Shown here: positions 2,325 to 59,147 of the stretch, piece by piece | Position numbering within the stretch: the stretch's first letter is position 1 | Layout of the letters: each line of letters begins with the position of its first letter | Source of the DNA: a virus | Length of the DNA: 59,816 nt | Direction: 5' to 3' (one strand) | Virus record (IMG/VR): IMGVR_UViG_3300002140_000076 | Made by a program: the position numbers and the translations under genes | The notes under the pieces: model-generated | Databases searched by the model: none | What the model was told of the DNA's origin: nothing | What the model saw: only the letters and a program-made list of their open reading frames with translations

Positions 2325-2357
2325 ATCAATTTAAAAACAAATAAAAAAATAGAAATT

Positions 2358-2684
2358 ATGACAAATTTTAAAAATATAACAACGAGAGAAAAACTATCAT
2401 CTAGAGGTGGTGGGGTTGAGATTGACTTAACAAGTTTAGGTTTCAAAAACCACAAGATGAGCGCATACCAAAACTACTTAGGCGGTGGAATGCTGGGTAG
2501 CATTCAGTCGAATGACACGATACGTTCACAAGAGTCCAATGTAAGGCTTCAGCTTGAATTTAGCAATAGATTTAAGGAGCTGGACGAGATAGCAGAGGAG
2601 CTTGAGCTTTACTTCGCAGAGCGAATGGGTTTTGATCAAAATGGAATAGATGAGTTACAAGGAAGACCAAGTAGTGCGTACTAA
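2358..2684 (+). CDS. Hypothetical early protein (108 aa)
   Basis: Tiled ORF preceded by aaatagaaattATG. Confidence 0.6.
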   Translation: MTNFKNITTREKLSSRGGGVEIDLTSLGFKNHKMSAYQNYLGGGMLGSIQSNDTIRSQESNVRLQLEFSNRFKELDEIAEELELYFAERMGFDQNGIDELQGRPSSAY

Positions 2685-2758
2685 AATGAAATACTTAAAG
2701 GCAAAGCTTTACCAAGGCGGTGAAAAATTATATAACATAATCAGACAATTTTATTAAC

Positions 2759-2920
2759 ATGAAGAATTTTAAATTGATATACGAAGACTACGAGGGTAAT
2801 GAATTAGACTCAAAAAAATACGACTTTGAGGACTCCTTGGAGGCGCAAATATTCGCAAACAAATTGTTTGCCAATAGCAACATGAATGATTTAGCAATTA
2901 TAAAGGTAATAGAATACTAA
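2759..2920 (+). CDS. Small hypothetical protein (53 aa, below the ORF-track cutoff)
   Basis: Hand translation gives MKNFKLIYEDYEGNELDSKKYDFEDSLEAQIFANKLFANSNMNDLAIIKVIEY*. It fills an otherwise empty gap in the tiling. Confidence 0.4.
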   Translation: MKNFKLIYEDYEGNELDSKKYDFEDSLEAQIFANKLFANSNMNDLAIIKVIEY

Positions 2921-2933
2921 AAAAATAGAAAAC

Positions 2934-3164
2934 ATGAAAAGAATCGAAAAAATATATGCGACAATAATGTTTGTCATAGTGGGTTCGTTGGTGGTCGTAA
3001 ACTCAACCTCATGCAGTCAGAATACAAGCCTAGGCAACGCCTATTGGTCAGACTCGATAGATAACCCAATGAATGCTGAGTTTGTTAATGAGGTAGCGTT
3101 TAACGAGGGAATTGAATTTTACGAGGTAACGCAAAAAATGTTTAACAAGAGATATAAAAAGTAG
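2934..3164 (+). CDS. Putative small secreted lipoprotein (76 aa)
   Basis: N-terminus KRIEKIYATIMFVIVGSLVVVNSTSC has a charged start, a hydrophobic core and a Cys, as in a lipoprotein signal. Confidence 0.5.
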   Translation: MKRIEKIYATIMFVIVGSLVVVNSTSCSQNTSLGNAYWSDSIDNPMNAEFVNEVAFNEGIEFYEVTQKMFNKRYKK

Positions 3165-3169
3165 AAATT

Positions 3170-3388
3170 ATGACAAGTTTTGTAAAAAATGAAAAGTTAA
3201 GACTTATTGGTAACTTATTAAGGTCAAAGTTCAATGGTGCAAAGGCATCTGATATGTACCTTATATATTGGAACGACTACTTGACGATTGATAAGATGGC
3301 TGAAGACTACGGTGTTAACCCAGTGCAGTTGGAAGTAATTATTAACGAAGGAAGAAAACAATTTAATCAAAAAAAAGGAAGATTATGA
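3170..3388 (+). CDS. Small putative HTH protein (72 aa), sigma-70 region-4-like
   Basis: Segment YLTIDKMAEDYGVNPVQLEVIINEGRKQF has a helix-turn-helix pattern. The functional call is tentative. Confidence 0.4.
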   Translation: MTSFVKNEKLRLIGNLLRSKFNGAKASDMYLIYWNDYLTIDKMAEDYGVNPVQLEVIINEGRKQFNQKKGRL

Positions 3389-3660
3389 AGATGAATTTAA
3401 AAGATGTGGAATGGACGCTGATAAGTGAGATATTTCCGAATGGTGTACATATGCCGAATGCTGATGATACTGTACAGAGAATTAACAGTGAGTCAAATTT
3501 CGACCACTACAAAAAAAATATCATTAATCGATTTGGCGATTCTGATGTTATCATAGATAAAGACGCAGAGGTTTATAACAATTTCAAGATCGTAAACGCT
3601 GAGTTTGAAAGAGTTTCAAACATATTCATGGATTCAAAAAGAAGATATTATAATATATAA
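3385..3660 (+). CDS. Hypothetical early protein (91 aa)
   Basis: ATGA overlap with the preceding ORF, in the tiling. Confidence 0.55.
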   Translation: MKMNLKDVEWTLISEIFPNGVHMPNADDTVQRINSESNFDHYKKNIINRFGDSDVIIDKDAEVYNNFKIVNAEFERVSNIFMDSKRRYYNI

Positions 3661-3664
3661 CAAG

Positions 3665-3910
3665 ATGATAGTTTTATGTATCAACGACAACAGACTGCCT
3701 CCTGGTGCAAACGTCCAAGAGGGCAAAGAGTACGAGGTAATGGACCAATACAAGAACATGCTCGACCAAGTGGTCTATGTTATTAAGGGCGTTAATAACC
3801 AAGGTAGAACGAAGTTAGGCATGGAATGGAGAGGCTACAGAGCAGAACGATTCGTGCCGATCCAGACTGAAAAAATATTTAAACAAGAAAGTGAGTTTTT
3901 ATACAATTAA
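3665..3910 (+). CDS. Hypothetical early protein (81 aa). Start moved to the internal ATG.
   Basis: The ORF-track start at 3605 overlaps the previous gene by 56 nt. The ATG at 3665 (MIVLCINDN...) lies just after the previous stop. Confidence 0.5.
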   Translation: MIVLCINDNRLPPGANVQEGKEYEVMDQYKNMLDQVVYVIKGVNNQGRTKLGMEWRGYRAERFVPIQTEKIFKQESEFLYN

Positions 3911-3939
3911 AACACTATATTTACACAAAATCAAATCAA

Positions 3940-4122
3940 ATGAGCAAATTATTTTTACTTGGAAGGGTAGCAGGTCTACCTAAAACAGAGATTAAAGTCA
4001 CCACAGAATACATTGGAGATGGTAGCCATCCAAAATGGATGGGCAATAGTATCAAGGACTACAATATATTCACAAACTTCAACTACAAATTGTACGAGAA
4101 TATTAAAAAAAACAGAAATTAA
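3940..4122 (+). CDS. Hypothetical early protein (60 aa)
   Basis: Tiled ORF preceded by aaatcaaatcaaATG. Confidence 0.5.
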   Translation: MSKLFLLGRVAGLPKTEIKVTTEYIGDGSHPKWMGNSIKDYNIFTNFNYKLYENIKKNRN

Positions 4123-4137
4123 ATAAAGATAAATAGT

Positions 4138-4377
4138 ATGGAAAAAATAAAAGTATATTGGACAATGATAAACGGCAATAGCATTGATGTTGACGATATG
4201 GATATTCAGCATCTGAGAAATACATTGAAGATGATAATCGAAAATAAGGCAAGGGTTAATGTATCGAAGCAAAATTTTGAAATACATGGAGAGATAGCGC
4301 AAGATATGATTGATCAAGGATACCTTCAAGACCAAGAAGATTGGGATCCAAGGGATGACTTTAATTTTTTAAAATAA
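4138..4377 (+). CDS. Hypothetical early protein (79 aa)
   Basis: Tiled ORF. Confidence 0.55.
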   Translation: MEKIKVYWTMINGNSIDVDDMDIQHLRNTLKMIIENKARVNVSKQNFEIHGEIAQDMIDQGYLQDQEDWDPRDDFNFLK

Positions 4378-4388
4378 TAAATTATGAT

Positions 4389-4658
4389 ATGGACAACAGA
4401 CTCATCATTACCAAATCTGACAATTTCTTACTCATTGATGTCACAGACATCGCAGAAAAACTTATCGATTCAGATGAGTTATTCATATGGGATGGCGAAC
4501 ACAAGTCTCTCGTGGAGTACGTCTTCGACATCAGAAAAGCAATCAGAGAAGGTAATAAAATAGTATTGGCTGGAGGACATCTGCCAAAGAAAAAATTCTC
4601 AGAATCAGAGAAAGTATTAATCGATGGTTATTGGTACGTAAAGTACTCAGACCTTTAA
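4389..4658 (+). CDS. Hypothetical early protein (89 aa)
   Basis: Tiled ORF. Confidence 0.55.
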   Translation: MDNRLIITKSDNFLLIDVTDIAEKLIDSDELFIWDGEHKSLVEYVFDIRKAIREGNKIVLAGGHLPKKKFSESEKVLIDGYWYVKYSDL

Positions 4659-4669
4659 AAACAAATAAC

Positions 4670-4834
4670 ATGGGAAAATCAAAACAAATTTTTATAGAAA
4701 TCAGACAAGAAGATAGCCAAGCATTAGAGCTTGAGTTTGAATCAAGAATTAAAAATCGAAGACCTAAACAGTCAAGCACATCAACAATTATTTTAAAAAA
4801 TTTATTTAAAAACTTTAATCCAAAGAAAATATGA
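4670..4834 (+). CDS. Small hypothetical protein (54 aa). Start moved to the internal ATG.
   Basis: The ATG at 4670 (MGKSKQIF...) follows the previous stop. It has an ATGA overlap with the next ORF. Confidence 0.4.
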   Translation: MGKSKQIFIEIRQEDSQALELEFESRIKNRRPKQSSTSTIILKNLFKNFNPKKI

Positions 4835-5127
4835 AAGAGGAAATCTTTAATCAGTACGTATACGCAGTGTGCAAGGAAATGAAAGTAGACAACGTAGACT
4901 TTTTTGCAAAAACAAAGAAGCCAGATGTTGTAAAGGCGAGACATTTATTGTACTACCTATGCTTCAATAGACCAATGAGAACATATGAGATCCAAAAATT
5001 TATGAGTAACAATTATTACGAAACTGACCACTCAACTATAATCAGAGGGATAGATCGTATGAGCGAGGTCTTGAAAAAAGACAAAGACTACTCCAATCTT
5101 ATAAAAAAAATAAAAAAATATGTATAG
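4831..5127 (+). CDS. DnaA C-terminal (domain IV)-like HTH protein (98 aa)
   Basis: VVKARHLLYYLCFNRPMRTYEIQKFMSNNYYETDHSTIIRGIDRM resembles the DnaA DNA-binding domain pattern (...R..amYL...t..s...IG......dHsTV.ha...i). Confidence 0.5.
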   Translation: MKEEIFNQYVYAVCKEMKVDNVDFFAKTKKPDVVKARHLLYYLCFNRPMRTYEIQKFMSNNYYETDHSTIIRGIDRMSEVLKKDKDYSNLIKKIKKYV

Positions 5128-5533
5128 TTTAGAGGAAATATTTTTGATAGCATCAAATGATAGATACGCAAGTAAGATGGACTCAAGTTCATACGAATCT
5201 TCAATGCTGTATGGTATTAAGATAGTAAAGGATGAAACAACATCTGAGATACAGATATTCAGTACGTATGGAGACCACTACAAGGAGATTGACAAAGAAA
5301 GTTATGAAATATTTTTAAATAATGGTTGGAGATATGGAGTATATGTGTTATCTTTGGTGAACTATTGTGCAAATATAGACAGACTAGGTCAGTTGTTATC
5401 TTATCAGCTAAGTTTGGGTACAAAGATGAGCAAGAAGTCGATAATGTCCATCATGGAGGATAGAGACTACTTAATGGAGAAGAAAATGGAGGTAACAATT
5501 AAGTTTAACAATTTAAAATCAAATCAAAAATGA
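5120..5533 (+). CDS. Hypothetical early protein (137 aa)
   Basis: Tiled ORF overlapping both neighbours by a few nt. Confidence 0.55.
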   Translation: MYSLEEIFLIASNDRYASKMDSSSYESSMLYGIKIVKDETTSEIQIFSTYGDHYKEIDKESYEIFLNNGWRYGVYVLSLVNYCANIDRLGQLLSYQLSLGTKMSKKSIMSIMEDRDYLMEKKMEVTIKFNNLKSNQK

Positions 5534-5976
5534 AAAATTTATTAGTAGTAGTAGGATTAGCATTAAGCTATACAGCAAATGCACAATGGGTAACAAGAAC
5601 AGTAAACAATGATTTTGATGACCCTTACAGAATTGCATATACTCAAAGAGATGATATGCTTCTTAAGTTAGAGAATGTAGAGGGTAAAGTATGGGTATAC
5701 GTAAGTAATGGATATACGTGTGATGATGATTTAACAGTAGACATATCTTTCATAGTTAATGGAGTAGCCAAAAAGTACGCCTTCAGTGCGTTCACATCTA
5801 CTAACAGAGAGAGTGTATTCTTTATAAATGATCTGGCAAGTCAAAACTGTTTAGTTGACTTCAAAGAGTGTACCTCTGTAAAAATCAGAATAAATGATAC
5901 TACGTGTGGCTCTGAAATTTATCAGTTTAATATGTCTGGTAGTACATCAGCATTAAAGTTTATAATTAATGAGTAA
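5530..5976 (+). CDS. Putative secreted protein with a cleavable signal peptide (148 aa)
   Basis: N-terminus MKNLLVVVGLALSYTANAQ-W is a classic Sec signal with an A-x-A-type cleavage site. Confidence 0.6.
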   Translation: MKNLLVVVGLALSYTANAQWVTRTVNNDFDDPYRIAYTQRDDMLLKLENVEGKVWVYVSNGYTCDDDLTVDISFIVNGVAKKYAFSAFTSTNRESVFFINDLASQNCLVDFKECTSVKIRINDTTCGSEIYQFNMSGSTSALKFIINE

Positions 5977-6001
5977 AATAACAATTTAAAATCAAATCAA
6001 A

Positions 6002-6646
6002 ATGAGTAACGAAAAACAATTAACAACATTTGAGAAGCTATCAGCAATCAATGTTAACGACAGAGTAGAGAAGAAGAACGGACTAACATACCTCTCATGG
6101 GCATGGGCATGGTCAGAGGTGAAGAAGTCTTGTCCTGATGCCGTGTACTATATCAATGATACTGAGTACGATGATGACCTTGGATTTATGTGCCATACTC
6201 AAGTATGCATCGGTGGTGAGACATTAGAGATGTGGCTTCCAGTGATGGATGGGGCGAACAAGTCAATGAAGAAAAGAGCGTACAAGTACACGACTCGTTA
6301 TGGGGAGAAGTCAGTTGAGGGTGCAACCACTTTTGATATCAACAAAACTATCATGAGGTGTCTTGTTAAGAATCTTGCAATGTTTGGTTTAGGCATCTAC
6401 ATCTATGCAGGTGAAGATTTGCCAGAGGGCGAAGAGGCGGTTCAGACTGTGGCTAAAGAGATACAGAAAAAACCAGCTGGAAAGCTTACCCTAAAGCCAG
6501 GTGATGAGAATTGGGCAAAGGCATCTAAGTACGTTACCGAGAACAAAGCGGTAGGAGAGGAGCAATTAATTAATACGCTATCCTCCAAGTATTCAATCTC
6601 AGCTAAGTCAAAAGAAGAATTAATAAAACTAATTACTACGAAATGA
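6002..6646 (+). CDS. Rad52-like single-strand annealing protein (Sak / DUF1071 type)
   Basis: GLTYLSWAWAWSEVKKSCPDAVYY and EMWLPVMDGANKSM match my recollection of the Sak/DUF1071 signature. It is translationally coupled to a nuclease gene. Confidence 0.7.
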   Translation: MSNEKQLTTFEKLSAINVNDRVEKKNGLTYLSWAWAWSEVKKSCPDAVYYINDTEYDDDLGFMCHTQVCIGGETLEMWLPVMDGANKSMKKRAYKYTTRYGEKSVEGATTFDINKTIMRCLVKNLAMFGLGIYIYAGEDLPEGEEAVQTVAKEIQKKPAGKLTLKPGDENWAKASKYVTENKAVGEEQLINTLSSKYSISAKSKEELIKLITTK

Positions 6647-7377
6647 GCAAGGAAATAATAGAAAAGCTTCGCAATGACGAAGATTATTACGGAAAATTTG
6701 GTAAGCAGTTTTTATCTAATTCAGACATCGGATCATTATTAGGTAACCCACTTGACTTTGGAAAGCAAGAAGATGATAATGTAAACTACGCAAAGGGAAG
6801 ATACTTTCATCAATTAATATTAGAGCCTGAGAAGGCGATGGAGACGATATTTGTTGATGCGTCTACCCGTACTACTAAAATATATAAAGAAGCGGTTGAG
6901 GAGCTTAATTTAGGCTTCATTCTTTTAAGCAAAGAGGGCGAGGAGATTAGAGGTTGCGTTGACAACATGATTCAAAACTTTGAGTTCTTTGAGGGTATAC
7001 GTGAGGATGGCAATCAGTACGAGGTTCCAGCTATCAAGGAGATAAAAGGAAAGATGTGGAAGGGTAAGGCTGATATCGTTTGCAAGGATAAGCTTATTGA
7101 CCTTAAGACAACGAGCAACATCAACGACTTCAAATGGTCGGCAAGGAAGTACAACTATGATAGCCAATGCTACATCTACCAAGAACTCTTCGGTAAGCCA
7201 TTAGTATTCTACGTGGTAGACAAAACAGATGGTAGGTTAGGTATCTTTAGACCAACTGAAGAATTCATCAAGAGAGGTGAGGATAAAGTTGAGAGAGCAA
7301 TTGATGTATACGAAAAATTCTTTGGAGAAAATGCCACAGAAAAAATCGAAACATACTTCATTAACGAATATTTATAA
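6643..7377 (+). CDS. PD-(D/E)XK recombination exonuclease (YqaJ/RecB-like)
   Basis: GKADIVCKDKLIDLKTTSN fits the D...(D/E)xK nuclease core. It has an ATGA overlap with the annealing-protein gene, the classic exo plus SSAP pairing. Confidence 0.65.
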   Translation: MSKEIIEKLRNDEDYYGKFGKQFLSNSDIGSLLGNPLDFGKQEDDNVNYAKGRYFHQLILEPEKAMETIFVDASTRTTKIYKEAVEELNLGFILLSKEGEEIRGCVDNMIQNFEFFEGIREDGNQYEVPAIKEIKGKMWKGKADIVCKDKLIDLKTTSNINDFKWSARKYNYDSQCYIYQELFGKPLVFYVVDKTDGRLGIFRPTEEFIKRGEDKVERAIDVYEKFFGENATEKIETYFINEYL

Positions 7378-7464
7378 TACTTTTACATAGTTATCTCAGT
7401 TTAAGTTTCGGGGCTGGGTTAACTATTATTAATTCCGAAGCATAAATCAAATAAATATTTTATT

Positions 7465-7689
7465 ATGAATCAAGAAAAAGTTTTTGCGAATGGGTTTTCA
7501 TTCAAGAAAAATGCAGCTGCACCAGAATTTGTAGTTGGTAAACTGTCCATTAAAGCAGATGAGGCGGTTGAGTTCATCCAATCCCATGTTAAAAAGGGTT
7601 GGATCAACATTGATATCAAACAAGCAAAGAATGGAAACTACTATTGCGAGTTAGATACCTATGAACCAGTAGCTAAGGATGAATTTTAG
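7465..7689 (+). CDS. Hypothetical protein (74 aa), possibly a small OB-fold ssDNA-binding protein
   Basis: Sits directly after the exo/SSAP pair. The beta-rich pattern FVVGKLSIK...GWINIDIKQAKNGNYYCEL is suggestive. The function is a guess. Confidence 0.3.
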   Translation: MNQEKVFANGFSFKKNAAAPEFVVGKLSIKADEAVEFIQSHVKKGWINIDIKQAKNGNYYCELDTYEPVAKDEF

Positions 7690-7705
7690 CACTAAATAAC
7701 CTAAA

Positions 7706-7731
7706 GAAAGGGGGATTAATTTCCCCCTTTT
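7706..7731 (+). terminator. Hairpin terminator candidate after the recombination module
   Basis: gaaaggggga-ttaatt-tccccctttt has a G5/C5 stem plus A/T pairs and runs into T residues. Confidence 0.5.
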
Positions 7732-7766
7732 AAACCAAACAAAACACAAAATCCCCCCTCTCTACT

Positions 7767-7896
7767 TATATATATATAGAAATATATAACTTTATTATTT
7801 TTTCCCTACATAGGGGGAATAAAAAACAAGCATTTTCAACATAACAATTAGTAATCAGATAGTTAGGTATTAAAAATCAACATAAAATCAACATAA
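7767..7896 (+). promoter_or_regulatory. AT-rich module, copy 1: (TA)6, T-run, 17-mer AGCATTTTCAACATAAC (7829-7845), 33-nt spacer, 18-mer AACATAAAATCAACATAA (7879-7896). It abuts the primase ATG.
   Basis: The same blocks with the same 33-nt spacing recur at 58949..59083. Function (promoter or origin) is unknown. Confidence 0.6.
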
Positions 7897-7897
7897 G

Positions 7898-10330
7898 ATG
7901 ACATATAATGTAACAATTTTCAAGAACATAAAGGAGACGGATACACCGTTCTACCGAGACGTAAAGGTTCTCCTTGATAGGGTAAAGAACGGAGAGTCAA
8001 AGAATTTAGTTAAAAAAATACGTGCAGAAAAAGATAAGTCTGAGCGTAATGAATTAAAAAAATTACTTCCAGCGATTTGTTTTAGCGGTAAGTTTAATAA
8101 AAGAAATGATAGTTCATTGGTCGAGCATAGCGGATTGATATGTTTGGACTTTGATGGGTACGACAGAACCAGAGACTTACTTTTTGACAAGGATAAATTG
8201 TCAAAGGATAAGTTTGTATTCTCTGTGTTCGTATCTCCTTCAGGAAATGGGCTTAAGGTCTTGATGAAGATCCCGACAGAGGTCAACAACCACGTTAGCT
8301 ACTTCAACGCAATTGGCAAACACTTCAACTCACCACACTTTGATTCAGTGGTTAAGAATGTGTCTCGTGTATGTTACGAGTCGTTTGACCCTTTGATTTA
8401 CATCAACTATGATTCAAAGATATGGACTGTTCTTGATGATCCAGAGTATATCGAGGTAGTTAAGAATGTTGATGCGCCAACGATAGCAATAACAGATGAG
8501 AACAAGATAGTTGAGATTCTTGTGAAATGGTGGACAAAGAAGTATCCGATGGTAGATGGTCAGAGAAATCATAATGTATTTGTTTTGGCTATGGCGTTCA
8601 ATGATTATGGAATTGCAAAGTCATTAGCTGGTTATGTCTTGAACCAGTACTCAGACACCGACTTCCCAATTAGTGAGATATCTCGCACAATTGATTCCGC
8701 ATATGCAAATACAGGAAACTTTGGTTCTAAGTATTATGAGGATACTGAAAAAATAAGTGAGATAAAGTCACAACTTAACAATGGTGTATCAAAAAATGAT
8801 ATTCGCTATCAGTTAAAGGGGTCAGATATTGATAGCGAGATAATTGAATTAGTTCTAAATAGAATTGAGAATAGTGATTCATTGGATGTTTTTTGGACTA
8901 AAAACGATAAAGGTTTAGTTAAAATAATTCATCACAAATTCAAAACATTTCTTGAAGACAGTGGATTCTATAAGTTTTGTCCAGAGGGAGGAAAAAATTA
9001 TGTATTCGTAAAGGTTACAAATAATTTAGTTGACCACACTTCTGAGAAAGATATTAAGGATTTCATATTGAATTATCTTGAGACCATGGATGATATGGCT
9101 ATTTATAATTACTTCGCAGACCAGACGAGATTCTTTAAGGAAGATTTCTTGACTCTGTTGTCTACCATTGACATCTACTTCATAGAAGATACTAAGGATA
9201 CATCGTATTTGTACTATATTAATTGTGCAGTTAAGATTACTGAAAACACAGTAGAGCCAATTGACTACCTTGACTTAGGTGGTTACGTTTGGAAGGACCA
9301 TGTTGTTGATAGAGTTTTTGATATATGTGACGATAACTCATGCGATTACAAACAGTTCATTGGACGCATATGTGCTAACGATGAGGCTAGGGTAAAGACA
9401 TTGGAAAGTACCATTGGATTCTTGCTGCATGGTTATAAGAATTTATCATATTGTCCAGCTATAATTCTAAATGATGAGATGATTAGCGACAATCCAGAGG
9501 GTGGAACGGGTAAAGGATTATTCATGAGCGCAATAGGAAAAATGAAGAAGTTGGTTGTAATTGATGGCAAGGCATTTGCGTTTGAGAAATCATTCCCGTA
9601 TCAATTGGTATCAGCAGACACACAAGCTTTATGTTTTGATGATGTTAAGAAACACTTTGATTTTGAAAGATTGTTCAGTGTGGTAACAGAAGGTTTAACG
9701 CTTGAGAAGAAGAATAAAGATGCTATTAAGATCCCATTTAGCAGGTCTCCAAAGATCGCTATTACAACAAACTATGCCATCAAAGGTAGTGGTAACTCAT
9801 TTGCAAGACGTAAGTGGGAGGTTGAACTTCACCAGCACTACAGTAAGGATTATACTCCATTAGATGAGTTTGGGAAACATTTCTTTGCTGATTGGGATGA
9901 GTTTGAGTGGTGTCAGTTTGACAATTATATGATATCATGTCTTCAATTATATCTTGGTAAAGGACTGATTAAGGGTTCATTTGTTAATCTTGAAATTAGA
10001 AATTTATCAGCAGAGACATCACCTGATTTCATTGAGTGGTGTGGGTTAGTTAATGGTGCTGAGGCGAATCACGAGCTTAGAGTAGGTTTCAAGGTTAGGC
10101 TACAAGATGCCTATAATGAATTTATTTCTGAGTACCCTGATTATGCTCCAAAGTCAAGGTATAGCGTAAGCAGGATGAAGTTTGCAAAATGGGTATATGC
10201 ATATGCATTATTCATGACTGACGTAGCTCCTGAGATTGGAAGAGACATGCATGGTAAATGGATGTACATTAGGAGGTCATTGGGTGATTCGCCAAAAGTT
10301 TTAAGCAAATCGGTAATCAACGACAAATAA
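7898..10330 (+). CDS. Primase-helicase: VirE-N/BT4734-like primase-polymerase domain fused to a D5-like P-loop helicase (810 aa)
   Basis: The N-terminal part has SGLICLDFDGY and VFVSPSGNGLKVLMKIP, as in VirE_N/prim-pol. The central Walker A is NPEGGTGKGLF, with a Walker B-like LCFDDV typical of D5/P4-type SF3 helicases. Confidence 0.8.
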   Translation: MTYNVTIFKNIKETDTPFYRDVKVLLDRVKNGESKNLVKKIRAEKDKSERNELKKLLPAICFSGKFNKRNDSSLVEHSGLICLDFDGYDRTRDLLFDKDKLSKDKFVFSVFVSPSGNGLKVLMKIPTEVNNHVSYFNAIGKHFNSPHFDSVVKNVSRVCYESFDPLIYINYDSKIWTVLDDPEYIEVVKNVDAPTIAITDENKIVEILVKWWTKKYPMVDGQRNHNVFVLAMAFNDYGIAKSLAGYVLNQYSDTDFPISEISRTIDSAYANTGNFGSKYYEDTEKISEIKSQLNNGVSKNDIRYQLKGSDIDSEIIELVLNRIENSDSLDVFWTKNDKGLVKIIHHKFKTFLEDSGFYKFCPEGGKNYVFVKVTNNLVDHTSEKDIKDFILNYLETMDDMAIYNYFADQTRFFKEDFLTLLSTIDIYFIEDTKDTSYLYYINCAVKITENTVEPIDYLDLGGYVWKDHVVDRVFDICDDNSCDYKQFIGRICANDEARVKTLESTIGFLLHGYKNLSYCPAIILNDEMISDNPEGGTGKGLFMSAIGKMKKLVVIDGKAFAFEKSFPYQLVSADTQALCFDDVKKHFDFERLFSVVTEGLTLEKKNKDAIKIPFSRSPKIAITTNYAIKGSGNSFARRKWEVELHQHYSKDYTPLDEFGKHFFADWDEFEWCQFDNYMISCLQLYLGKGLIKGSFVNLEIRNLSAETSPDFIEWCGLVNGAEANHELRVGFKVRLQDAYNEFISEYPDYAPKSRYSVSRMKFAKWVYAYALFMTDVAPEIGRDMHGKWMYIRRSLGDSPKVLSKSVINDK

Positions 10331-10408
10331 CACGCTTATTTGGCGATTTAATTCAATGAAAATATAGTATAATTAGTGATTATTAATTAACAATTTAAAA
10401 CAAATAAA

Positions 10409-10696
10409 ATGAGAAGTTACAAAAAAGAATTAGAAGAAATTGCAAGTGATTTGTTAAATCAAAACGCTCATGCAGAAGGCAATGAGAATAAGCCGAATTA
10501 TTCCAAAAGAGATTTTATGAATGGGCTGATTATTTTTCAAACAGCATTGATGGATAAGATGTATGATAATCAAGATTACGATAAAATGGATATTGAGGAT
10601 AGAATAAAAATGACTGAAAGTTGTGGCTTTGCATTGAGAAACTTAATCCATACTTACACTGGATTAGACACACATAAGATTGAGGAGTTTCTTTAG
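10409..10696 (+). CDS. Hypothetical protein (95 aa)
   Basis: Tiled ORF preceded by the aacaatttaaaacaaataaaATG leader motif. Confidence 0.55.
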   Translation: MRSYKKELEEIASDLLNQNAHAEGNENKPNYSKRDFMNGLIIFQTALMDKMYDNQDYDKMDIEDRIKMTESCGFALRNLIHTYTGLDTHKIEEFL

Positions 10697-10813
10697 GGCA
10701 TCAGATAACACCTACGGCTATGAATTAAAGCCGTATAACAAATGATTGATTCAAAAAAAACAACCCCAACAACGGCTTTTATTTATAGCCATTGTTAGCA
10801 AACATTTAATAAT

Positions 10814-11095
10814 ATGATTGATTTTAAAAGTTACCACGAAAAAAACCCACAAATATGGGAGGCTTTTCAAAAATTTGCTCGCCAAGCAAAAGATAGAGGA
10901 TTTAAACATTACTCAGCCAATGGAATATTTGAAATAATTAGATGGCATACTGAAGTTTCAGCTAGAGATAATTTTAAAATTGGCAATAATTATAGACCTG
11001 ATTACGCTAGAAAAATGATGACTGATTTTCCAGATGAGTTTGATGGTTTTTTTAGAATTAGAGAGTTGAAAGCACCTAGAACTTATTGTTTATAA
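10814..11095 (+). CDS. Hypothetical protein (93 aa)
   Basis: Isolated ORF flanked by hairpin-containing spacers. Confidence 0.55.
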   Translation: MIDFKSYHEKNPQIWEAFQKFARQAKDRGFKHYSANGIFEIIRWHTEVSARDNFKIGNNYRPDYARKMMTDFPDEFDGFFRIRELKAPRTYCL

Positions 11096-11156
11096 CACCA
11101 AAACAAGAAAATGTTTTAATGTTTCTTGTTGACTGTTATGAGCCGTTTAAATGGCG

Positions 11157-11164
11157 TAACTTTG
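11157..11164 (+). promoter_or_regulatory. Bacteroidota-type -7 promoter box TAACTTTG upstream of the SNF2 helicase gene
   Basis: Matches TAnnTTTG. Located 44 nt before the ATG at 11208. Confidence 0.45.
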
Positions 11165-11190
11165 TCCAGTTTTTTGCGCAAAAAACTGGA
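11165..11190. promoter_or_regulatory. 26-bp perfect palindrome TCCAGTTTTTTGC/GCAAAAAACTGGA directly after the -7 box (operator or 5' UTR hairpin candidate)
   Basis: The sequence equals its own reverse complement over all 26 nt. Confidence 0.6.
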
Positions 11191-11207
11191 CATTTAAAAA
11201 TAAATAT

Positions 11208-12665
11208 ATGTTAGTGATTGATAGAAAGCTAGGGTATTCTGATGAAATGATGTATAGTTACTGTCAGATTCTTGCCTCAGTTGTGAATAAAACAATAGAC
11301 GTAAAGACTGGGAGAGGGAAGAACGTGACAATTACAAGAGTTCTTAAGCACTCTACTCATAAAGATGCTATTGAGAAAATAAACAATAGTGTTGATTATT
11401 ATAAAGAACTAATGGAAAAACCAAAATGTAAAGTAGAATTTAGAGACTATCAGAATGATATAATATCAAGGGGTAGTAGCTTAATGCTTAAGCATAGATT
11501 TGTGTATTTAGCAATGGAGGTTAGGACTGGTAAGACACTCACTAGTCTCGGTATAGCTAATTCAGTAGGAGCGACAAGCGTACTATTCGTAACTAAAAAG
11601 AAAGCGATAAGCAGCATACAGGATGATTATGATTTACTGCTTCCCTCGTATAGAATTGTGATTATAAATTACGAATCATTACATCTGGTAAATGATAGTT
11701 TTGATCTAATCATACTTGATGAAGCCCATGGCATGGGGGCTATACCTAAGCCAAGCAAAAGGGCGAAACAAGTCAAGGAGATGATCATGAAGAATGGTTA
11801 TCCATACGTAATACTTTTGTCAGGTACTCCGACTCCAGAGTCGTATAGTCAGATGTATCACCAGGTATATGGCATACGGAATAATCCATTCAGTGAGTTT
11901 AAAAACTTTTACAGATTCTGTGACAAGTATGTTAATGTGAAGGAGAGAAAGATAAATGGGCTAATGATTAAGGACTATAAAGATGGTCTGGAGTCGATCA
12001 TTAATGCGATGTCACCATACACAATAAACTATACGCAGAAGCAAGCTGGTTTCAAGGTTGATACTCGTGAGCATATCATGGAGGTAGAAATGAGTGATAC
12101 TGTTTATCGAATTGCTAAGAAGCTAAAGAAGGACCTTGTTGTTGAAGGTAAAGACGAAGTTATTCTTGCCGACACACCAGTGAAACTAATGATGAAGCTC
12201 CATCAGTTGTACTCAGGAACAATTAAGTTTGAGTCTGGAGCATCAATGATTATTGATCCATCAAAGGCTCAGTTTATATACGATAACTTCTGCAATGTAA
12301 AGATTGGTATCTTTTATAAATTTAAAGAGGAACTGAATGCACTCATGCAGATATACGGTAAGGAATACTTAACAACAGATCTTAGCGAGTTTGACACCAC
12401 TGATAAGTCAATAGCATTGCAGATAGTTTCTGGTCGTGAAGGCATAAGCCTAAAGAAAGCTGATGCGCTTGTGTACTTCAATATAGACTTTAGCGCAACT
12501 AGTTACTGGCAGAGCAGAGATAGGATGACTACCAAGGATAGATTGGAAAGCGATGTCTATTGGATATTCGCAAAAGGAGGAATAGAAAGGGATATATACA
12601 AAACAGTTATAGAGAAAAAAGATTATACATTAAATCATTTTAAAAAAAATAACACAAATGAATGA
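11208..12665 (+). CDS. SNF2/DEAD-like superfamily 2 helicase (485 aa)
   Basis: Motifs present: FRDYQNDII (motif Q/I region), MEVRTGKT (Walker A), LIILDEAHG (DEAH box) and LLSGTPTPES (motif III). Confidence 0.8.
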   Translation: MLVIDRKLGYSDEMMYSYCQILASVVNKTIDVKTGRGKNVTITRVLKHSTHKDAIEKINNSVDYYKELMEKPKCKVEFRDYQNDIISRGSSLMLKHRFVYLAMEVRTGKTLTSLGIANSVGATSVLFVTKKKAISSIQDDYDLLLPSYRIVIINYESLHLVNDSFDLIILDEAHGMGAIPKPSKRAKQVKEMIMKNGYPYVILLSGTPTPESYSQMYHQVYGIRNNPFSEFKNFYRFCDKYVNVKERKINGLMIKDYKDGLESIINAMSPYTINYTQKQAGFKVDTREHIMEVEMSDTVYRIAKKLKKDLVVEGKDEVILADTPVKLMMKLHQLYSGTIKFESGASMIIDPSKAQFIYDNFCNVKIGIFYKFKEELNALMQIYGKEYLTTDLSEFDTTDKSIALQIVSGREGISLKKADALVYFNIDFSATSYWQSRDRMTTKDRLESDVYWIFAKGGIERDIYKTVIEKKDYTLNHFKKNNTNE

Positions 12666-12939
12666 AGAAAACCAAATAAAAACAGTAGTTTTGTTAGGAA
12701 TTACTAACATAATGATACAATACATTGAAGATATATCATTTGACCACCCTAATTTAATTAGATACGGGTTAAAGAAATCGTTAAAAAATGCTGTATCTGA
12801 GATTGAGAAACAGCATGAGAGAATATTCATGGGATTAGAGGGTGAACAGAGAACAGGAGTCGCTGAACAGATTAATGATATATCATTAAAGTTTCACGAT
12901 TGGGTATTCAATGAGTTTAAATTTGATAATAATAAATAA
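12658..12939 (+). CDS. Hypothetical protein (93 aa)
   Basis: Overlaps the helicase stop by 8 nt, in the tiling. Confidence 0.5.
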   Translation: MNEENQIKTVVLLGITNIMIQYIEDISFDHPNLIRYGLKKSLKNAVSEIEKQHERIFMGLEGEQRTGVAEQINDISLKFHDWVFNEFKFDNNK

Positions 12940-12941
12940 TT

Positions 12942-13232
12942 ATGGAAAGCAAGAAAAACAAAAACGCAGGCAAGCACCCGTCATATGACAAGCTAAATAT
13001 GTCTGAAGAAAGACGCAAAAAGAAGTTGGCGTATGATAAGGAGTATGGAGCATCGGCTGCTAGAAAAAAGTATAGAGCTGAACTAAATGCCGCCAATAAA
13101 AAGGCAGGTACGTATGGCAATGGAGATGACAAGGATATGAGTCATGGCAAAAACGGGAAGCTAAGTAGTGAGCCTCAGTCTAAGAACAGAGCACGTAATG
13201 GTCAGAATGGTAAAACCACAAAAAAGAAATGA
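12942..13232 (+). CDS. Small, very basic, K/R/N-rich protein (96 aa)
   Basis: Tiled ORF with low-complexity basic composition. Confidence 0.5.
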   Translation: MESKKNKNAGKHPSYDKLNMSEERRKKKLAYDKEYGASAARKKYRAELNAANKKAGTYGNGDDKDMSHGKNGKLSSEPQSKNRARNGQNGKTTKKK

Positions 13233-13471
13233 CCGAACAGCAGATACAAAGCAAGAGGATTAAGCAATTAGAGGCAGAGGGGTACTACGTACTAAAACTG
13301 GTAAAGACCAACAAAAATGGGATACCCGACATAGTCGCTATAGCTCCAAATGCTGATGTAGTTTTCAGTGAGGTAAAAACGCTAAAAGGAAAGACATCAC
13401 CTCTTCAGGATTATAGACTGAAAGAGCTGAGTGAATACGGTTTTAAAACAGAAGTATATAGAGGTGAGTGA
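13229..13471 (+). CDS. VRR-NUC-type PD-(D/E)XK nuclease (80 aa)
   Basis: GIPDIVAIAPNADVVFSEVKTLKGKTSPLQ fits the D...ExK core and the VRR-NUC size. Has ATGA overlaps on both sides. Confidence 0.65.
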   Translation: MTEQQIQSKRIKQLEAEGYYVLKLVKTNKNGIPDIVAIAPNADVVFSEVKTLKGKTSPLQDYRLKELSEYGFKTEVYRGE

Positions 13472-15218: not shown

Positions 15219-15221
15219 ACA

Positions 15222-57256: not shown

Positions 57257-58846
57257 TTATTTTGCTTCATATGTTCGTGCCATTGTGATAATGGCGTTTG
57301 TTGATAATATTGTAACGGCAACAGATACAGCATTCTCAAGGGCTGACTTGGTTACCTTTAACGGGTCAATTATCCCCATTTTATACATACTTCCCCAATC
57401 AAGATTCTTTAGATCATAACCGTAGTCAATGTCACTCAATAGGATAGCCTCAGAGTCCTCATCCTTCACCTCAATACCTGCATTTAGCCATATCTGTTTC
57501 AGAGGCGCACGTAGTGCGCTCGATAGTATTTTTTGTGCAATTGTCCCTGTGAGACCCAACGACTCTTTGTAAAGAGCCACCCCTCCACCTGGTACGATGC
57601 CCTCTTCAAGTGCTGACCGAACTGCGCAAACAGCATCATCAACTCTATCGTAAAGCTCTTTCTGTTCTAGGTCAGTATTACCACCAACGTAGATCACACC
57701 AACACCACCAGTAAGTGATGCTATTCTTGATAGGATAAATTCTTTGTCAGCCTTCTTGTTTGTATTGTTGTATGCGTCTCTCAGCTCAGATACTCTTTCT
57801 GATACCATAGCAGACTGCTCAGTGTTCTCTTTTACGATGACAGATGAGTCACGCCCAACTATTACCTTAGCCGCATGACCCAAATCTGATACTGACATTA
57901 TGCTCAGATCGTCACCTGTCTTCTCAGAGAAGTATGTTGCGTTTACTGACAATGCTATGTCCTGCATCAGCTCGTGTTGTTTGTAACCGAAGTTTGGTGG
58001 GGCAATAGCACATACCTTTAGACCATTCTTCATCACGTTTGCTGCAAGAGTATTAATCACATTCTGTGAGCATGGTGCGATGATCAGTAATCTCTTACCC
58101 TCATTTATGATTGGTTTCAGTATGTTCTCAATGCTAAGTAAATTACTTATCTCAGCGTCACTAACAAGCACATAGGTGTCCTCAAGCATACACTCATCCT
58201 TACGGTGATCGTTGATGAATAGGTTTGAGGTATAGCCCCTGTCAATCTTTAAACCGTCAGTTGTCTCGTAGTACGTGTCAGATGTCTGTGAGTTAGCAAT
58301 TGTAACGACCCCTGTTTTACCCACCTTAGAGTACACCTCAGAGATGATCGCACCTATCTTGGTGTCATTGTTCGCTGAGATGATTGCAACGTCTCTAAGG
58401 GTCTTCCCTGACACCTTCTTTGAAGTCTTCTTTAGATTACTTATGATTGACTTGGTCTCTGACACAAGATCACGGAGCACCTCAGTCTTATTCTCGTTAG
58501 ATGTGATCAGCTCAAAGCCAGCCTTAACAAGTGCCTCTGTCAGCACGATTGATGTTGTTGTACCATCACCAGCAGATGTAGCTGTACGATCAGCCGCCTC
58601 TTTCATCATCCTTACCGCAAGGTTCTCAACTGGGTCTAATAGCTCAACAGCCTTAGCGACAGTGACACCATCCTTAGTTACCGTAATACCATGTGTGTGA
58701 TGTGGGCTCTCAATTAGTACCGTCTGTCCCGATGGACCCAACGTAGACTTAACTGCTGAAGCGATAGCTTCGATGCCCTTAAATAATTTCTCACGAGCCT
58801 CCTCGTTAAACTTTAAGTCCTTTGGAGAATATCCTAACTCTGACAT
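57257..58846 (-). CDS. groL: Chaperonin GroEL / Cpn60 (529 aa), lacking the C-terminal GGM tail
   Basis: The N-terminus KDLKFNEEAREKLFKGIEAIASAVKSTLGPSGQTVLIE...ITVTKDGVTVAKAVEL...AGDGTTTSIVLTEAL is the canonical GroEL equatorial-domain signature. GIIDPLKVTKSALENA lies near the C-terminus. Confidence 0.92.
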   Translation of the reverse strand: MSELGYSPKDLKFNEEAREKLFKGIEAIASAVKSTLGPSGQTVLIESPHHTHGITVTKDGVTVAKAVELLDPVENLAVRMMKEAADRTATSAGDGTTTSIVLTEALVKAGFELITSNENKTEVLRDLVSETKSIISNLKKTSKKVSGKTLRDVAIISANNDTKIGAIISEVYSKVGKTGVVTIANSQTSDTYYETTDGLKIDRGYTSNLFINDHRKDECMLEDTYVLVSDAEISNLLSIENILKPIINEGKRLLIIAPCSQNVINTLAANVMKNGLKVCAIAPPNFGYKQHELMQDIALSVNATYFSEKTGDDLSIMSVSDLGHAAKVIVGRDSSVIVKENTEQSAMVSERVSELRDAYNNTNKKADKEFILSRIASLTGGVGVIYVGGNTDLEQKELYDRVDDAVCAVRSALEEGIVPGGGVALYKESLGLTGTIAQKILSSALRAPLKQIWLNAGIEVKDEDSEAILLSDIDYGYDLKNLDWGSMYKMGIIDPLKVTKSALENAVSVAVTILSTNAIITMARTYEAK

Positions 58847-58873: not shown

Positions 58874-58881
58874 CAAAGATA
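58874..58881 (-). promoter_or_regulatory. -7 promoter box TATCTTTG upstream of groEL
   Basis: CAAAGATA on the plus strand, 27 nt upstream of the ATG at 58846. Confidence 0.45.
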
Positions 58882-58948
58882 CTATTATTTCTTTAAGTAA
58901 TAAGAGATTCCGAAAATATAGAAATGTTGGTTTTTTCCTATATATATA

Positions 58949-59083
58949 TATATTAATTTATATAATAATATTATTTTTTTTTTAAAATTCTAAGTAAGTA
59001 AAATGAGCATTTTCAACATAACCACTGATGTTCAAGTAGTTACAAAAGCAGAATGAACATAAAATCAACATAAATTAGCATAA
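58949..59083 (+). promoter_or_regulatory. AT-rich module, copy 2: (TA)7, T-run, 17-mer AGCATTTTCAACATAAC (59016-59032), 33-nt spacer, 18-mer AACATAAAATCAACATAA (59066-59083)
   Basis: Same blocks, order, orientation and 33-nt spacing as 7767..7896. Confidence 0.6.
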
Positions 59084-59109
59084 AGAGATGAAACTTAACA
59101 CATTTTAAC

Positions 59110-59147
59110 AAAAAAAAGAGCAGATTATTAGTCTACTCCTATTTTTT
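59110..59147. terminator. Bidirectional terminator-like hairpin flanked by A8 and T6
   Basis: aaaaaaaa-gagcagat-tatt-agtctactc-ct-atttttt, an imperfect 8-9 bp stem. On the minus strand it follows ORF 59161..59340 and is followed by T8. Confidence 0.5.

Follow-up and report, generated by a model that had tools for sequence, protein, structure and literature searches.

A duplicated iteron module, a candidate replication origin, beside the primase-helicase gene in a phage family of marine and freshwater metagenomes

Two loci in the phage genome IMGVR_UViG_3300002140_000076 carry the same module of short phased repeats (iterons), a conserved central element and DNA of very low duplex stability. 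One lies directly before the gene of a primase-SF3 helicase (module 1) and the other beside groEL (module 2), and the duplication is far beyond chance. We give about an even chance to the reading that the module is a duplicated iteron-type replication origin, which the adjacent primase-SF3 helicase would bind by analogy with systems discussed below. Most likely the module also carries a rightward promoter besides its candidate role as an origin. A first-pass annotation had raised both possibilities, i.e. an origin or a promoter for a dedicated factor. In the following, the window is the whole stretch of 59,816 nucleotides that was analysed.

The window is a complete phage genome of approximately 59.6 kb with a terminal repeat of 252 bp, and the host is probably a Flavobacterium-like bacterium. 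Early and replication genes are on one strand and late genes on the other, with a giant ORF (15600-24443, minus strand, 2947 aa) at the point of convergence. Pfam and PHROG scans of 30 ORFs found the primase-SF3 helicase and an SNF2 helicase in the replication block, together with three recombination genes, a Sak annealing protein (6002-6646), a PDDEXK exonuclease (6643-7377) and a VRR-NUC nuclease (13229-13471). GC skew tracks gene orientation and gave no independent signal for an origin. No tRNA gene was found in the window, and its sole match to Rfam 15 is Hammerhead_1 at 731-779.

The blocks that the first-pass annotation had described at the two loci were all recovered. The 17-mer AGCATTTTCAACATAAC is present at 7829-7845 and 59006-59022, with no third site even at three mismatches, and the 18-mer AACATAAAATCAACATAA at 7879-7896 and 59056-59073. 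They are separated by 33 nt in each copy, and the whole block (7829-7896 and 59006-59073) has exactly two occurrences. The heptamer AACATAA occurs three times per copy as claimed, and alone it is not enriched genome-wide (23 found against 22.7 expected). The (TA)n tracts and T-runs are likewise present in both copies (Table 1). Copy 1 ends 1 nt before the ATG of the primase-helicase gene, and copy 2 faces away from groEL and is followed by a six-codon ORF and a hairpin. As this hairpin was called on the minus strand, it is probably the terminator of the ORF at 59161-59340 (minus strand). A repeat search pairs the two copies over 83 nt at 73% identity and over 42 nt at 79%. Furthermore, a profile derived from relatives matches exactly two sites in the window, which are the two modules.

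Table 1. Positions of the two modules and of neighbouring features in the window.
Feature	Position	Strand	Remarks
Hairpin after upstream ORF 7465-7689	7707..7730	+	Left boundary of module 1; the order hairpin, then module is also found in relatives
Module 1 low-stability tract	7767..7812		(TA)6 at 7767-7778, AT-rich DNA, T-run at 7798-7803; candidate DNA-unwinding element
Module 1 upstream iteron pair	7828..7845	+	AAGCATTT and TCAACATAA (the 17-mer); aligns with ATCGACATTATCGACA of relatives
Module 1 central element	7848..7865	+	TTAGTAATCAGATAGTTA; degenerate form of the family consensus cTGATAATCAgtaAgTTA
Module 1 tandem iterons	7877..7907	+	TCAACATAA at 7877-7885 and 7888-7896 (the 18-mer); degenerate TGACATATA at 7899-7907
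Primase-helicase gene, 810 aa	7898..10330	+	Candidate iteron binder and replication initiator; Pfam BT4734-like_N, PriCT_1, DUF5906
groEL	57257..58846	-	Adjoins module 2, which points away from it
-7 box TATCTTTG of the divergent groEL promoter	58874..58881	-	Host type; borders module 2 from outside; conserved in relatives
Module 2 single inverted iteron	58923..58931	-	Reverse complement ACCAACATT; between the AT tract and groEL
Module 2 low-stability tract	58939..58988		(TA)7 at 58939-58952, AT-rich DNA, T10 at 58974-58983
Module 2 upstream iteron pair	59005..59022	+	GAGCATTT and TCAACATAA (the 17-mer)
Module 2 central element	59025..59042	+	CTGATGTTCAAGTAGTTA; degenerate, two mismatches to the IHF-type core
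Module 2 tandem iterons	59054..59083	+	TGAACATAA at 59054-59062, TCAACATAA at 59065-59073, degenerate TTAGCATAA at 59075-59083
Six-codon ORF (59088-59108) and hairpin (59116-59140)	59088..59140		Downstream of module 2; tRNA-Arg(TCT) in the same slot in 16/54 relatives

The unit that repeats is in fact an iteron of 9 nt, TCAACATAA. Two iterons at a spacing of 9 bp make up the 17-mer, and two at a spacing of 11 bp the 18-mer. In both modules a third, degenerate iteron follows 10 bp further on, and in module 1 it overlaps the start codon of the primase. Each module in the window has five iteron-like copies. Inverted iterons to the left of the AT tract are absent from module 1 and represented by a single copy in module 2.

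The spacer of 33 nt is not free sequence, as it holds a conserved central element in both modules. The family form of this element is TGATAATCA-N-AGTTA, from which both copies in the window have degenerated. Positions 7853-7865 (AATCAGATAGTTA) match the IHF consensus WATCARNNNNTTR exactly, and of 72 unique regions upstream of the primase, 30 have an exact match, compared with 1.4 in shuffled sequences. An IHF-replaceable host factor exists in Bacteroides (PMC2034462). The left half of the element, TGAT, is also conserved, which suggests a palindromic operator. In relatives the element is mostly placed at -46/-45 relative to the primase ATG. The segment TAAGTTA was considered as a -7 box and rejected, the TA positions not being conserved.

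With windows of 30, 50 and 80 bp the tract of module 2 is the least stable DNA of the genome, and that of module 1 is the third least stable 30-bp window. Relatives have (TA)n, (TAG)n, (TAC)n or (ATT)n at the equivalent place.

Conservation in relatives was checked next to the same two genes. The module is present at both loci in MW202828 and in most of approximately 160 relatives from IMG/VR; among the IMG/VR loci it was found at the primase in 63 of 80 and at groEL in 61 of 80, and the relative L165 has it too. With the family profile, exactly two copies were found in the window and exactly two in MW202828, the two genomes that are complete. The full family form consists of an inverted iteron pair, about 76 bp of AT-rich low-complexity DNA, direct iterons, the central element and again direct iterons. 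The inverted upstream pair was found in 35 of 60 unique modules, including copies of module 1 without a leftward gene. The gap between inverted and direct iterons clusters at 55-79 bp with a mode of 76-79 bp; it is 79% A+T, and its sequence differs completely between lineages. The spacing of the downstream iterons is 11 bp in 82 of 100 intervals of relatives and that of the upstream iterons 9 bp in 41 of 44. The iteron of relatives has the core [CT][GA]ACA[CT] and is mostly ATCGACAY. Its copy number is two or three among close relatives, and L165 (91% identical) has three full copies. Two relatives, L054 and L064, lack module 1.

The family to which the window belongs is abundant in marine and freshwater metagenomes. 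A protein search returned more than 4,800 relatives of the primase-helicase, and in IMG/VR there are 179 loci with the primase and 377 with groEL. When the flanks were compared with deposited phages by near and distant DNA searches, no match was obtained, and the module itself gave only matches at chance level (E around 1). No cultured phage with a near DNA match or a full-length primase match was found.

The gene next to module 1 encodes a plausible iteron binder. The match to DUF5906 has a score of 27.4 bits, just below the cut-off of 27.6. The alignment of homologues contains GGTGKG, CFDDV and ITTN, which we take to be Walker A, Walker B and motif C of SF3 helicases. Identity is lower over the C-terminal 171 aa (54-78%) than over the whole protein (69-91%). 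In an AlphaFold model of the C-terminus, a strand-helix-helix-hairpin order is seen at about aa 732-790 with a pLDDT of 85-94. A Foldseek search with this part gave many winged-helix proteins among the best matches, none of them significant (best E = 1.1). On the basis of the order of secondary structure and these non-significant matches, the C-terminus is predicted to be winged-helix-like. The helicase core was modelled poorly (pLDDT around 30) and excluded from the fold search. A profile of the primase family gave only spurious matches in PDB, with no similarity to any solved initiator. Changes in the iterons and in the C-terminal helix showed no clear co-variation, and this line was dropped, since single modules contain iterons of mixed type and phylogeny confounds the pattern.

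Two DnaA-domain-IV-like proteins, encoded at 4831-5127 and 14647-15204, had been put forward as binders of the 17-mer and 18-mer. Both retain a recognition helix of the DnaA type, DH[S/A]TII[H/R], as well as an Arg that lines up with the ARPRQ segment of DnaA from E. coli. A specificity for DnaA-box-like sites is therefore expected, and the iterons are not DnaA boxes, so these proteins were set aside. For the DnaA box TTATCCACA there are 14 matches with one mismatch genome-wide, against 20.7 expected, and none of them in the modules.

The comparison lends support to the origin suggested earlier, as the module is conserved at both loci across the family, with rigidly phased iterons, an inverted pair beyond the AT-rich tract in relatives, the least stable DNA of the genome and an adjacent primase-SF3 helicase with a predicted winged-helix-like C-terminus. 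From this anatomy, conservation, duplex stability and gene context we infer binding, melting and origin activity.

The promoter suggested earlier can be placed within module 2 in those relatives where a tRNA follows. In 16 of 54 relatives a tRNA-Arg starts at -8 to +54 nt from the end of module 2, and in L085 it begins right after the second iteron. With this gene directly downstream and groEL divergent on the other side, a rightward promoter is needed within the module. Promoters of the primary sigma factor in Bacteroidetes have a -7 box TAnnTTTG and a TTG near -33 (PMC9723704). No TAnnTTTG box was found on the plus strand in or near either module, and clear TATCTTTG boxes precede groEL and other minus-strand genes. 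As the early genes on the plus strand have no host-type -7 box, those units need some unusual promoter. The dedicated factor of the first-pass annotation was not recovered, as no RNA polymerase or sigma factor was found among the 30 ORFs scanned.

All of this may be read as purely transcriptional control, i.e. a rightward promoter with operator arrays for a phage regulator, which would loop across the AT-rich DNA and use the central palindrome as a second operator, with no role in replication. We regard this as possible, if somewhat doubtful. The fixed place before a start codon or tRNA, the constant orientation and the gap of about 76 bp fit a looped promoter-operator equally well as an origin, and the tightness of the gap suggests a constraint on phasing. 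The promoter required inside the module, the lack of a host-type box for the early genes and the hairpin that precedes module 1 point the same way. Additionally, relatives have solitary, operator-like central palindromes in early leader regions downstream of host-type -7 boxes. On the other hand, neither module has such a box of its own, and L054 and L064 express the primase without module 1. In 32 of 54 unique lineages module 2 has nothing behind it but the hairpin of a convergent gene and is intact all the same, so that expression of a downstream gene in the same orientation cannot be the sole reason for its retention. A short site that recurs five to eight times, in both orientations and around the least stable DNA of the genome, is more typical of origins than of operators. 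There is also no candidate for the regulator; PHROG and Pfam scans of the small early ORFs as sigma factor, regulator or HU were uninformative.

We consider it very unlikely that the module is a promoter read by a dedicated RNA polymerase or sigma factor of the phage. One version would have a virion polymerase, as in N4 or crAss-like phages, injected with the DNA and reading the palindrome as a DNA hairpin. The strand-split layout with a giant ORF at the convergence point resembles that of N4, plus-strand units lack host-type promoters where minus-strand genes have TATCTTTG boxes, and the central element can be drawn as a stem of 4-5 bp with a loop of 3 nt. The palindrome shows no compensatory change, however (the outer pair is C-G 13, C-A 12, T-A 11 and T-G 11 times), it is degenerate in both copies of the window, and there are no more than two copies per genome. 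The scans of 30 ORFs gave no polymerase or sigma factor, and the giant protein has no sequence match in Pfam or PDB, which leaves its role as a virion polymerase unsupported rather than excluded.

A role at the RNA level is scarcely credible. Here the module would be the 5' leader of the primase mRNA and part of a tRNA precursor, acting as a site for a translational repressor or as a regulatory fold. A start site near AGTTA would place the downstream iterons in the transcript, and in L085 the tRNA follows the second iteron directly. According to PMC6847099, translation in Bacteroidetes is initiated without Shine-Dalgarno sequences, which an A-rich leader would suit. Against this, the inverted iterons and the AT tract are upstream of plausible starts and are conserved on the DNA in both orientations. 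No covariance model of Rfam 15 matches either module, and the fold of 59040-59152, downstream in module 2, is no better than that of shuffled sequence (z = 0.04). The reading of the central palindrome as a hairpin or RNA structure was rejected for want of covariation, an Rfam match and a stable fold.

It is highly improbable that the module serves packaging or recombination, i.e. as a site recognised by terminase near the genome end or as a boundary for exchange of the early cassette. The terminal repeat starts about 490 bp from module 2, and on the circular map, where they are 8.3 kb apart, the modules bracket a variable early region (about 8.3 kb). An IHF-like core with short repeated sites and a tRNA as neighbour also superficially recalls attP. 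No integrase was found, however, in the scanned ORFs of the window or in the annotation of MW202828, and no genome end is near module 1. A different conserved element, GGGGTGGGGG, coincides with the boundary of the terminal repeat.

For the origin reading the following mechanism is proposed. The primase-SF3 helicase would bind the iterons through its variable, predicted winged-helix-like C-terminal domain. The phased arrays, i.e. the 9-bp pair, the central element and the 11-bp tandem, would build up an oligomer beside the (TA)n/T-rich tract, and this tract, among the easiest DNA of the genome to melt, would act as unwinding element. Where the family form is complete, the opposed iteron pair some 76 bp away across the tract could allow two helicase rings to be loaded facing apart, as has been proposed for the Rep proteins of SaPIs (PMC9371898). 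The central element may bind an architectural or regulatory protein, either a host factor of the IHF/HU type or a phage repressor, which could introduce a bend between the two blocks of iterons. The helicase would then recruit the host replisome; this is proposed because neither the replication block on the plus strand nor the MW202828 annotation showed a recognisable DNA polymerase.

The embedded promoter and leader would serve the primase-helicase at module 1 and, in many relatives, the tRNA-Arg at module 2. The initiator would then bind at the promoter of its own gene and also regulate that gene. The second copy could be a second origin; alternatively, as proposed for SPP1 oriR, it could halt forks once protein is bound and so bring about a change to concatemer replication driven by recombination. 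For this change the Sak protein, the exonuclease and the VRR-NUC nuclease would be required, and the phage encodes all three. A more specific version would have a two-site replicator in a widespread group of uncultured Flavobacteriia podoviruses, where the module is origin and promoter in one, a self-loading helicase assembles on iterons around a microsatellite unwinding element, transcription inside the module (of the primase leader or a tRNA precursor) activates or primes initiation, and the second copy is a programmed fork barrier at which theta replication gives way to concatemer synthesis driven by recombination. In this combined form the proposal is unlikely.

The closest architecture is that of the SaPI origins, in which an AT-rich region has at least two iterons of 5-6 nt to either side, those on one side opposed to those on the other, and which the Rep/PriRep SF3 helicases bind with their C-terminal winged helix (PMC9371898). 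The phage modules likewise have short iterons, opposed across the AT-rich region in the 35 modules of the family with an inverted pair, and the neighbouring gene is a fused primase-SF3 helicase whose variable C-terminus is predicted to resemble a winged helix. Unlike the SaPI origin, which is immediately downstream of rep, the phage module is upstream of the candidate initiator gene and occurs twice per genome. Its central element splits the right-hand iterons into the 9-bp pair and the 11-bp tandem, and in the window the left-hand iterons are lost (module 1) or single (module 2). The phage module would also double as a promoter region, its host is probably Flavobacterium-like, and the primase-helicase has no detectable sequence similarity to the Rep proteins.

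[quoted passage not shown] For oriR it is proposed there that the bound site stalls forks and switches to recombination-driven concatemer replication. The phage resembles SPP1 in having two matching loci of direct repeats with an AT-rich element, one at the candidate initiator gene and the other far from it. It differs in that oriL is inside gene 38, whereas the phage module is upstream of the gene, and the inverted iterons of the relatives are not described for SPP1 in the account of PMC6316719. Counterparts of gp38, the loader gp39 and the DnaB-type helicase gp40 were not recognised by Pfam and PHROG in the 30 ORFs, where a primase-SF3 helicase is found instead. The annealing protein, 5'-3' exonuclease and junction-resolving nuclease of the phage would fit the events proposed for SPP1 after fork stalling at the second site.

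The alpha primase-helicase of satellite phage P4 recognises short iterons at two loci, ori and crr, through a C-terminal DNA-binding domain. There crr is an enhancer-like repeat and not a full duplicate of ori. The phage, with a candidate multifunctional primase-helicase and short iterons at two separate loci, may be analogous, although its primase-helicase has no sequence or significant fold match to alpha.

In iteron plasmids such as P1 (repA/incC) and pSC101, the promoter of the initiator gene lies within the iterons, and an IHF site is often present as well. Plasmid Rep proteins are winged-helix proteins existing as dimers and monomers, without helicase activity, and make use of DnaA boxes. 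As in iteron plasmids (general review in PMC4980987), the phage modules combine phased direct repeats, an AT-rich region and a candidate site for a bending protein, and the control region of the candidate initiator overlaps the iterons. Unlike in iteron plasmids, the modules have no DnaA boxes.

To our knowledge, neither the replication nor the gene timing of this phage family has been described, nor any origin-binding initiator. The module offers a defined, phased iteron of 9 nt, a candidate unwinding element, a candidate binding domain and a conserved central site for a second factor. If the origin reading fails, what is left is a promoter-operator region that is unusual and well defined, in a phylum where the transcription signals of phages are poorly known. 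If it is true, the family would be a second phage example, after SPP1, of two matched origin-like loci, and the SaPI type of architecture, with a self-loading helicase and opposed iterons, would be extended to lytic phages of Bacteroidota.

The first-pass annotation had listed a series of ordered blocks for a non-coding module before the primase-helicase gene (module 1) and for a copy beside groEL (module 2). On direct reading of the sequence each of these blocks is present at both loci, and the 17-mer and the 18-mer are separated by a spacer of 33 nt in either copy. A repeat search pairs the two copies over 83 nt at 73% identity and over another 42 nt at 79%. The 17-mer has no further copy in the window when up to 3 mismatches are allowed, and the same search for the 18-mer returned elsewhere a single match with 3 mismatches. 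The heptamer AACATAA is part of the blocks but by its count shows no genome-wide enrichment (23 occurrences versus 22.7 expected); the signal is the ordered blocks, not the heptamer by itself. Module 1 ends 1 nt before the primase-helicase ATG. Module 2 is directed away from groEL; a 6-codon ORF and then a hairpin come after it.

Positions of the module elements and of other features in the genome
Feature	Position	Remarks
(TA)6	7767-7778	module 1
(TA)7	58939-58952	module 2
T-runs	7798-7803; 58974-58983	module 1; module 2
17-mer AGCATTTTCAACATAAC	7829-7845; 59006-59022	
18-mer AACATAAAATCAACATAA	7879-7896; 59056-59073	
Inverted iteron	58923-58931	one left in module 2; none in module 1
Weak duplex, module 2	58939-58988	
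Weak duplex, module 1	7767-7796	
(TTTA)n tract	55384-55436	adjoined by TTGTTAATCAATAAGTTA
Primase-helicase gene	7898-10330	810 aa; domains BT4734-like_N, PriCT_1, DUF5906
groEL	57257-58846 (-)	
DnaA-domain-IV proteins	4831-5127; 14647-15204	DnaA C-terminal helix-turn-helix
AATGTTAAA, three copies	395-413; 491-499	non-coding
Terminal repeat	1-252; 59565-59816	identical
45-nt direct repeats	65-109; 178-222	within terminal repeat, each with palindrome CTATGCATGCATAG
Hammerhead_1 match	731-779 (+)	between early ORFs 511-726 and 796-1368
300-nt duplication	53818-54117; 54967-55266	100% identity; in minus-strand ORFs 53329-54231, 54250-55380
2947-aa ORF	15600-24443 (-)	
Small leftward unit	59161-59480 (-)	ORFs 59161-59340, 59328-59480; own TATCTTTG box at 59485
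Hairpin	59116-59140	

The exact 252-bp terminal repeat shows the window to be a complete phage genome. Rightward genes from about 500 to 15,400 carry early and replication functions, and leftward genes from 58,846 to 15,600 encode groEL/groES and structural proteins; when the map is closed into a circle, some 8.3 kb separates the modules, with the early genes between them. Besides the primase-helicase and the two DnaA-domain-IV proteins, products of the rightward block are a Sak annealing protein, a PDDEXK exonuclease, an SNF2-type helicase, a VRR-NUC nuclease and an exonuclease; no DNA polymerase was recognised in this block. Bacteroidetes-type -7 boxes (TATCTTTG; consensus as in PMC9723704) are clear before leftward genes, groEL included, and together with a primase N-terminus weakly related to Flavobacterium elemoviruses they point to a host in the Flavobacteriia. 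On the plus strand no box of this type was found in the two modules, nor ahead of the first early gene.

Other features of the genome were also recorded. The terminal repeat starts at TTTCGAGGGTGGGGGT, and relatives show a similar GGGGTGGGGG at the matching place, right of module 2; this element may be a physical end mark or a packaging signal. The match to the type I hammerhead ribozyme (Rfam Hammerhead_1) scored 34.3 bits against a gathering score of 34. The 300-nt duplication within neighbouring ORFs suggests recent gene conversion between paralogues. The 2947-aa ORF, placed where the two gene blocks converge, has no sequence match in Pfam or PDB, and its counterpart in the relative MW202828 is 3859 aa.

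MW202828, the nearest deposited genome (a podovirus found in a spring, circular, 60.85 kb, primase identity 68%), carries the same module at both places, before the primase gene and beside groEL. IMG/VR contains 179 relatives by primase and 377 by groEL. Scanned with a profile of the module core, 63 of 80 primase loci and 61 of 80 groEL loci gave one copy, and each complete genome gave exactly two. In the alignment with relatives the 17-mer resolves into two short iterons at 9-bp spacing, ATCGACATTATCGACA in most relatives and AAGCATTT-TCAACATAA in the window, and the 18-mer is two iterons at 11-bp spacing, with a third or fourth copy frequent. This spacing is rigid: upstream, 41 of 44 intervals measure 9 bp, and downstream, 82 of 100 measure 11 bp. 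The iteron core varies by lineage (CGACA, CAACA, TAACA, CGTCA, AGCA) and is similar in both modules of one genome. The relative L165 (primase identity 91%) has an identical 17-mer and three full tandem copies, versus two in the window. On the primase side the start codon comes directly after the last iteron, and the reading frame nearly always opens with ATGACA, an iteron-like core. Just 5' of the first early ORF (511), AATGTTAAA resembles an inverted iteron (TTAACAT).

In relatives the module opens with an iteron pair in the opposite orientation, e.g. AATGTCGAATGTCGAA, followed by a pyrimidine-rich YYCCTATA, simple-sequence DNA of the type (TA)n, (TAG)n, (TAC)n or (ATT)n, and a T-rich stretch. 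The inverted pair is found in 35 of 60 unique modules, and in 14 of 22 on the primase side, where no gene runs leftward that it could regulate. Distances from this pair to the first direct iteron cluster at 55-79 bp (mode 76-79); the stretch between has 79% A+T and a sequence unrelated from lineage to lineage. By nearest-neighbour energies, the weak duplex of module 2 is the least stable of the genome at 30-, 50- and 80-bp windows, and that of module 1 is the third least stable 30-bp window. The second is the (TTTA)n tract, where the adjoining sequence resembles the central element of the modules and iterons are absent.

This central element, with the consensus cTGATAATCAgtaAgTTA, lies in the 33-nt spacer and is degenerate in both copies of the window (TTAGTAATCAGATAGTTA, CTGATGTTCAAGTAGTTA). 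A maintained hairpin was ruled out, since the outer positions vary independently (C-G 13, C-A 12, T-A 11, T-G 11). The best-conserved portion, the right half plus TTA, fits the IHF consensus WATCARNNNNTTR, which is matched exactly in 30 of 72 unique primase-upstream regions versus 1.4 in shuffles, mostly at -46/-45 relative to the ATG. Bacteroides has a host factor that can be replaced by E. coli IHF (PMC2034462). The left half, TGAT, is conserved too, and relatives have solitary, more symmetric copies (GTAACTnnCTGATAATCAGnnAGTTAC) in their early non-coding regions. The element is therefore a candidate site for a bending protein or, alternatively, a candidate palindromic operator. The palindrome GTAACTnnCTGATAATCAGnnAGTTAC is found solitary and in tandem in L122 (about 1000-1400), L085, L107, L110 and L159, in uniform orientation and in some cases 3' of a host-type -7 box; these copies look like operators of a conserved regulator.

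An origin or a phage-specific promoter had been proposed at first, and the best-supported reading takes both together: a duplicated iteron-type replication origin with a rightward promoter or leader, which we hold with about even confidence. In the main rival, possible yet clearly less probable, the module is purely transcriptional, a promoter-operator region with looping between opposed arrays; the fixed gap of about 76 bp, the constant orientation and the set distance to the start codon agree with it just as well. Three further readings are each judged unlikely: a promoter for a dedicated phage polymerase, an element acting at the RNA level, and a packaging or recombination site.

Downstream contexts of the groEL-side module were counted over 54 unique instances. 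An A-run and hairpin, the terminator of a convergent gene, follows in 32, the window among these; tRNA-Arg(TCT) follows in 16, beginning -8 to +54 nt from the module end, and other features in 6. As groEL diverges on the other side, these tRNA genes need a promoter inside the module, and since the tRNA of L085 starts directly after the second iteron, the start site must be no further right than the downstream iterons. Most lineages with no co-oriented gene after the module still have it intact, so its function cannot be solely expression of a downstream gene. Module 1 is absent altogether from the primase loci of L054 and L064, where the ATG is about 20 nt 3' of the upstream hairpin; it is therefore not strictly needed for primase expression, and one copy can be lost. 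In the window the small leftward unit runs toward module 2, with the hairpin 59116-59140 at its end.

Two kinds of protein were considered as binders. In the alignment of primase-helicase homologues we take GGTGKG, CFDDV and ITTN to be the Walker A, Walker B and C motifs that mark an SF3 helicase. The last 171 residues are 54-78% identical, versus 69-91% for the whole protein, and residues 732-790 or so were modelled as strand-helix-helix-beta-hairpin (pLDDT 85-94, two AlphaFold runs). No sequence match was found among solved structures. Among the top Foldseek matches of the C-terminus are many DNA-binding proteins of the winged-helix type (Fur-family regulators, forkhead, FtsK gamma, Cdt1, BlaI/MecI, viral F-112 and F93), none significant (best E 1.1). 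The model is suggestive of a winged helix, a candidate iteron binder. The DnaA-domain-IV proteins, small and hardly more than that domain, had been suggested as binders of the 17-mer and 18-mer, which the comparison does not support. Both retain the DnaA recognition helix (DHSTIIR, DHATIIH; E. coli DHTTVLH) and an Arg that lines up with the E. coli DnaA segment ARPRQ, the DnaA-box likeness of the iteron reverse complement TTATGTTGA is limited to TTAT, and the genome has no DnaA-box cluster. For these reasons we infer that they target DnaA-box-like sites, not the iterons, and possibly act on the host chromosome rather than the phage.

SaPI origins have six to twelve iterons of 5-6 nt around a central AT-rich region, at least two on each side in opposite directions. 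The protein that binds them is a self-loading SF3 helicase, Rep or fused PriRep, which does so through its C-terminal winged helix and presumably places one hexamer on either side (PMC9371898). In its full family form the module matches this anatomy point by point. However, it lies upstream of the initiator gene whereas the SaPI origin lies downstream, the left-hand iterons are reduced in the window's own modules, and the winged helix is here a prediction. The duplication resembles oriL and oriR of SPP1, which share a similar organisation (direct repeats together with an unwinding element rich in A+T) and are both bound by gp38; the proposal for oriR is that forks stalling there set off recombination-dependent synthesis of concatemers by way of an annealing protein, exonuclease and junction resolvase (PMC6316719). 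The phage encodes counterparts of these three but no recognised gp38, gp39 or gp40 homologues, and no similarity to P4 alpha was found here. Given these differences, we would say that the module works like the SaPI and SPP1 systems, and do not file it as a member of any one. It is a real, conserved and useful find, yet a familiar kind of element.
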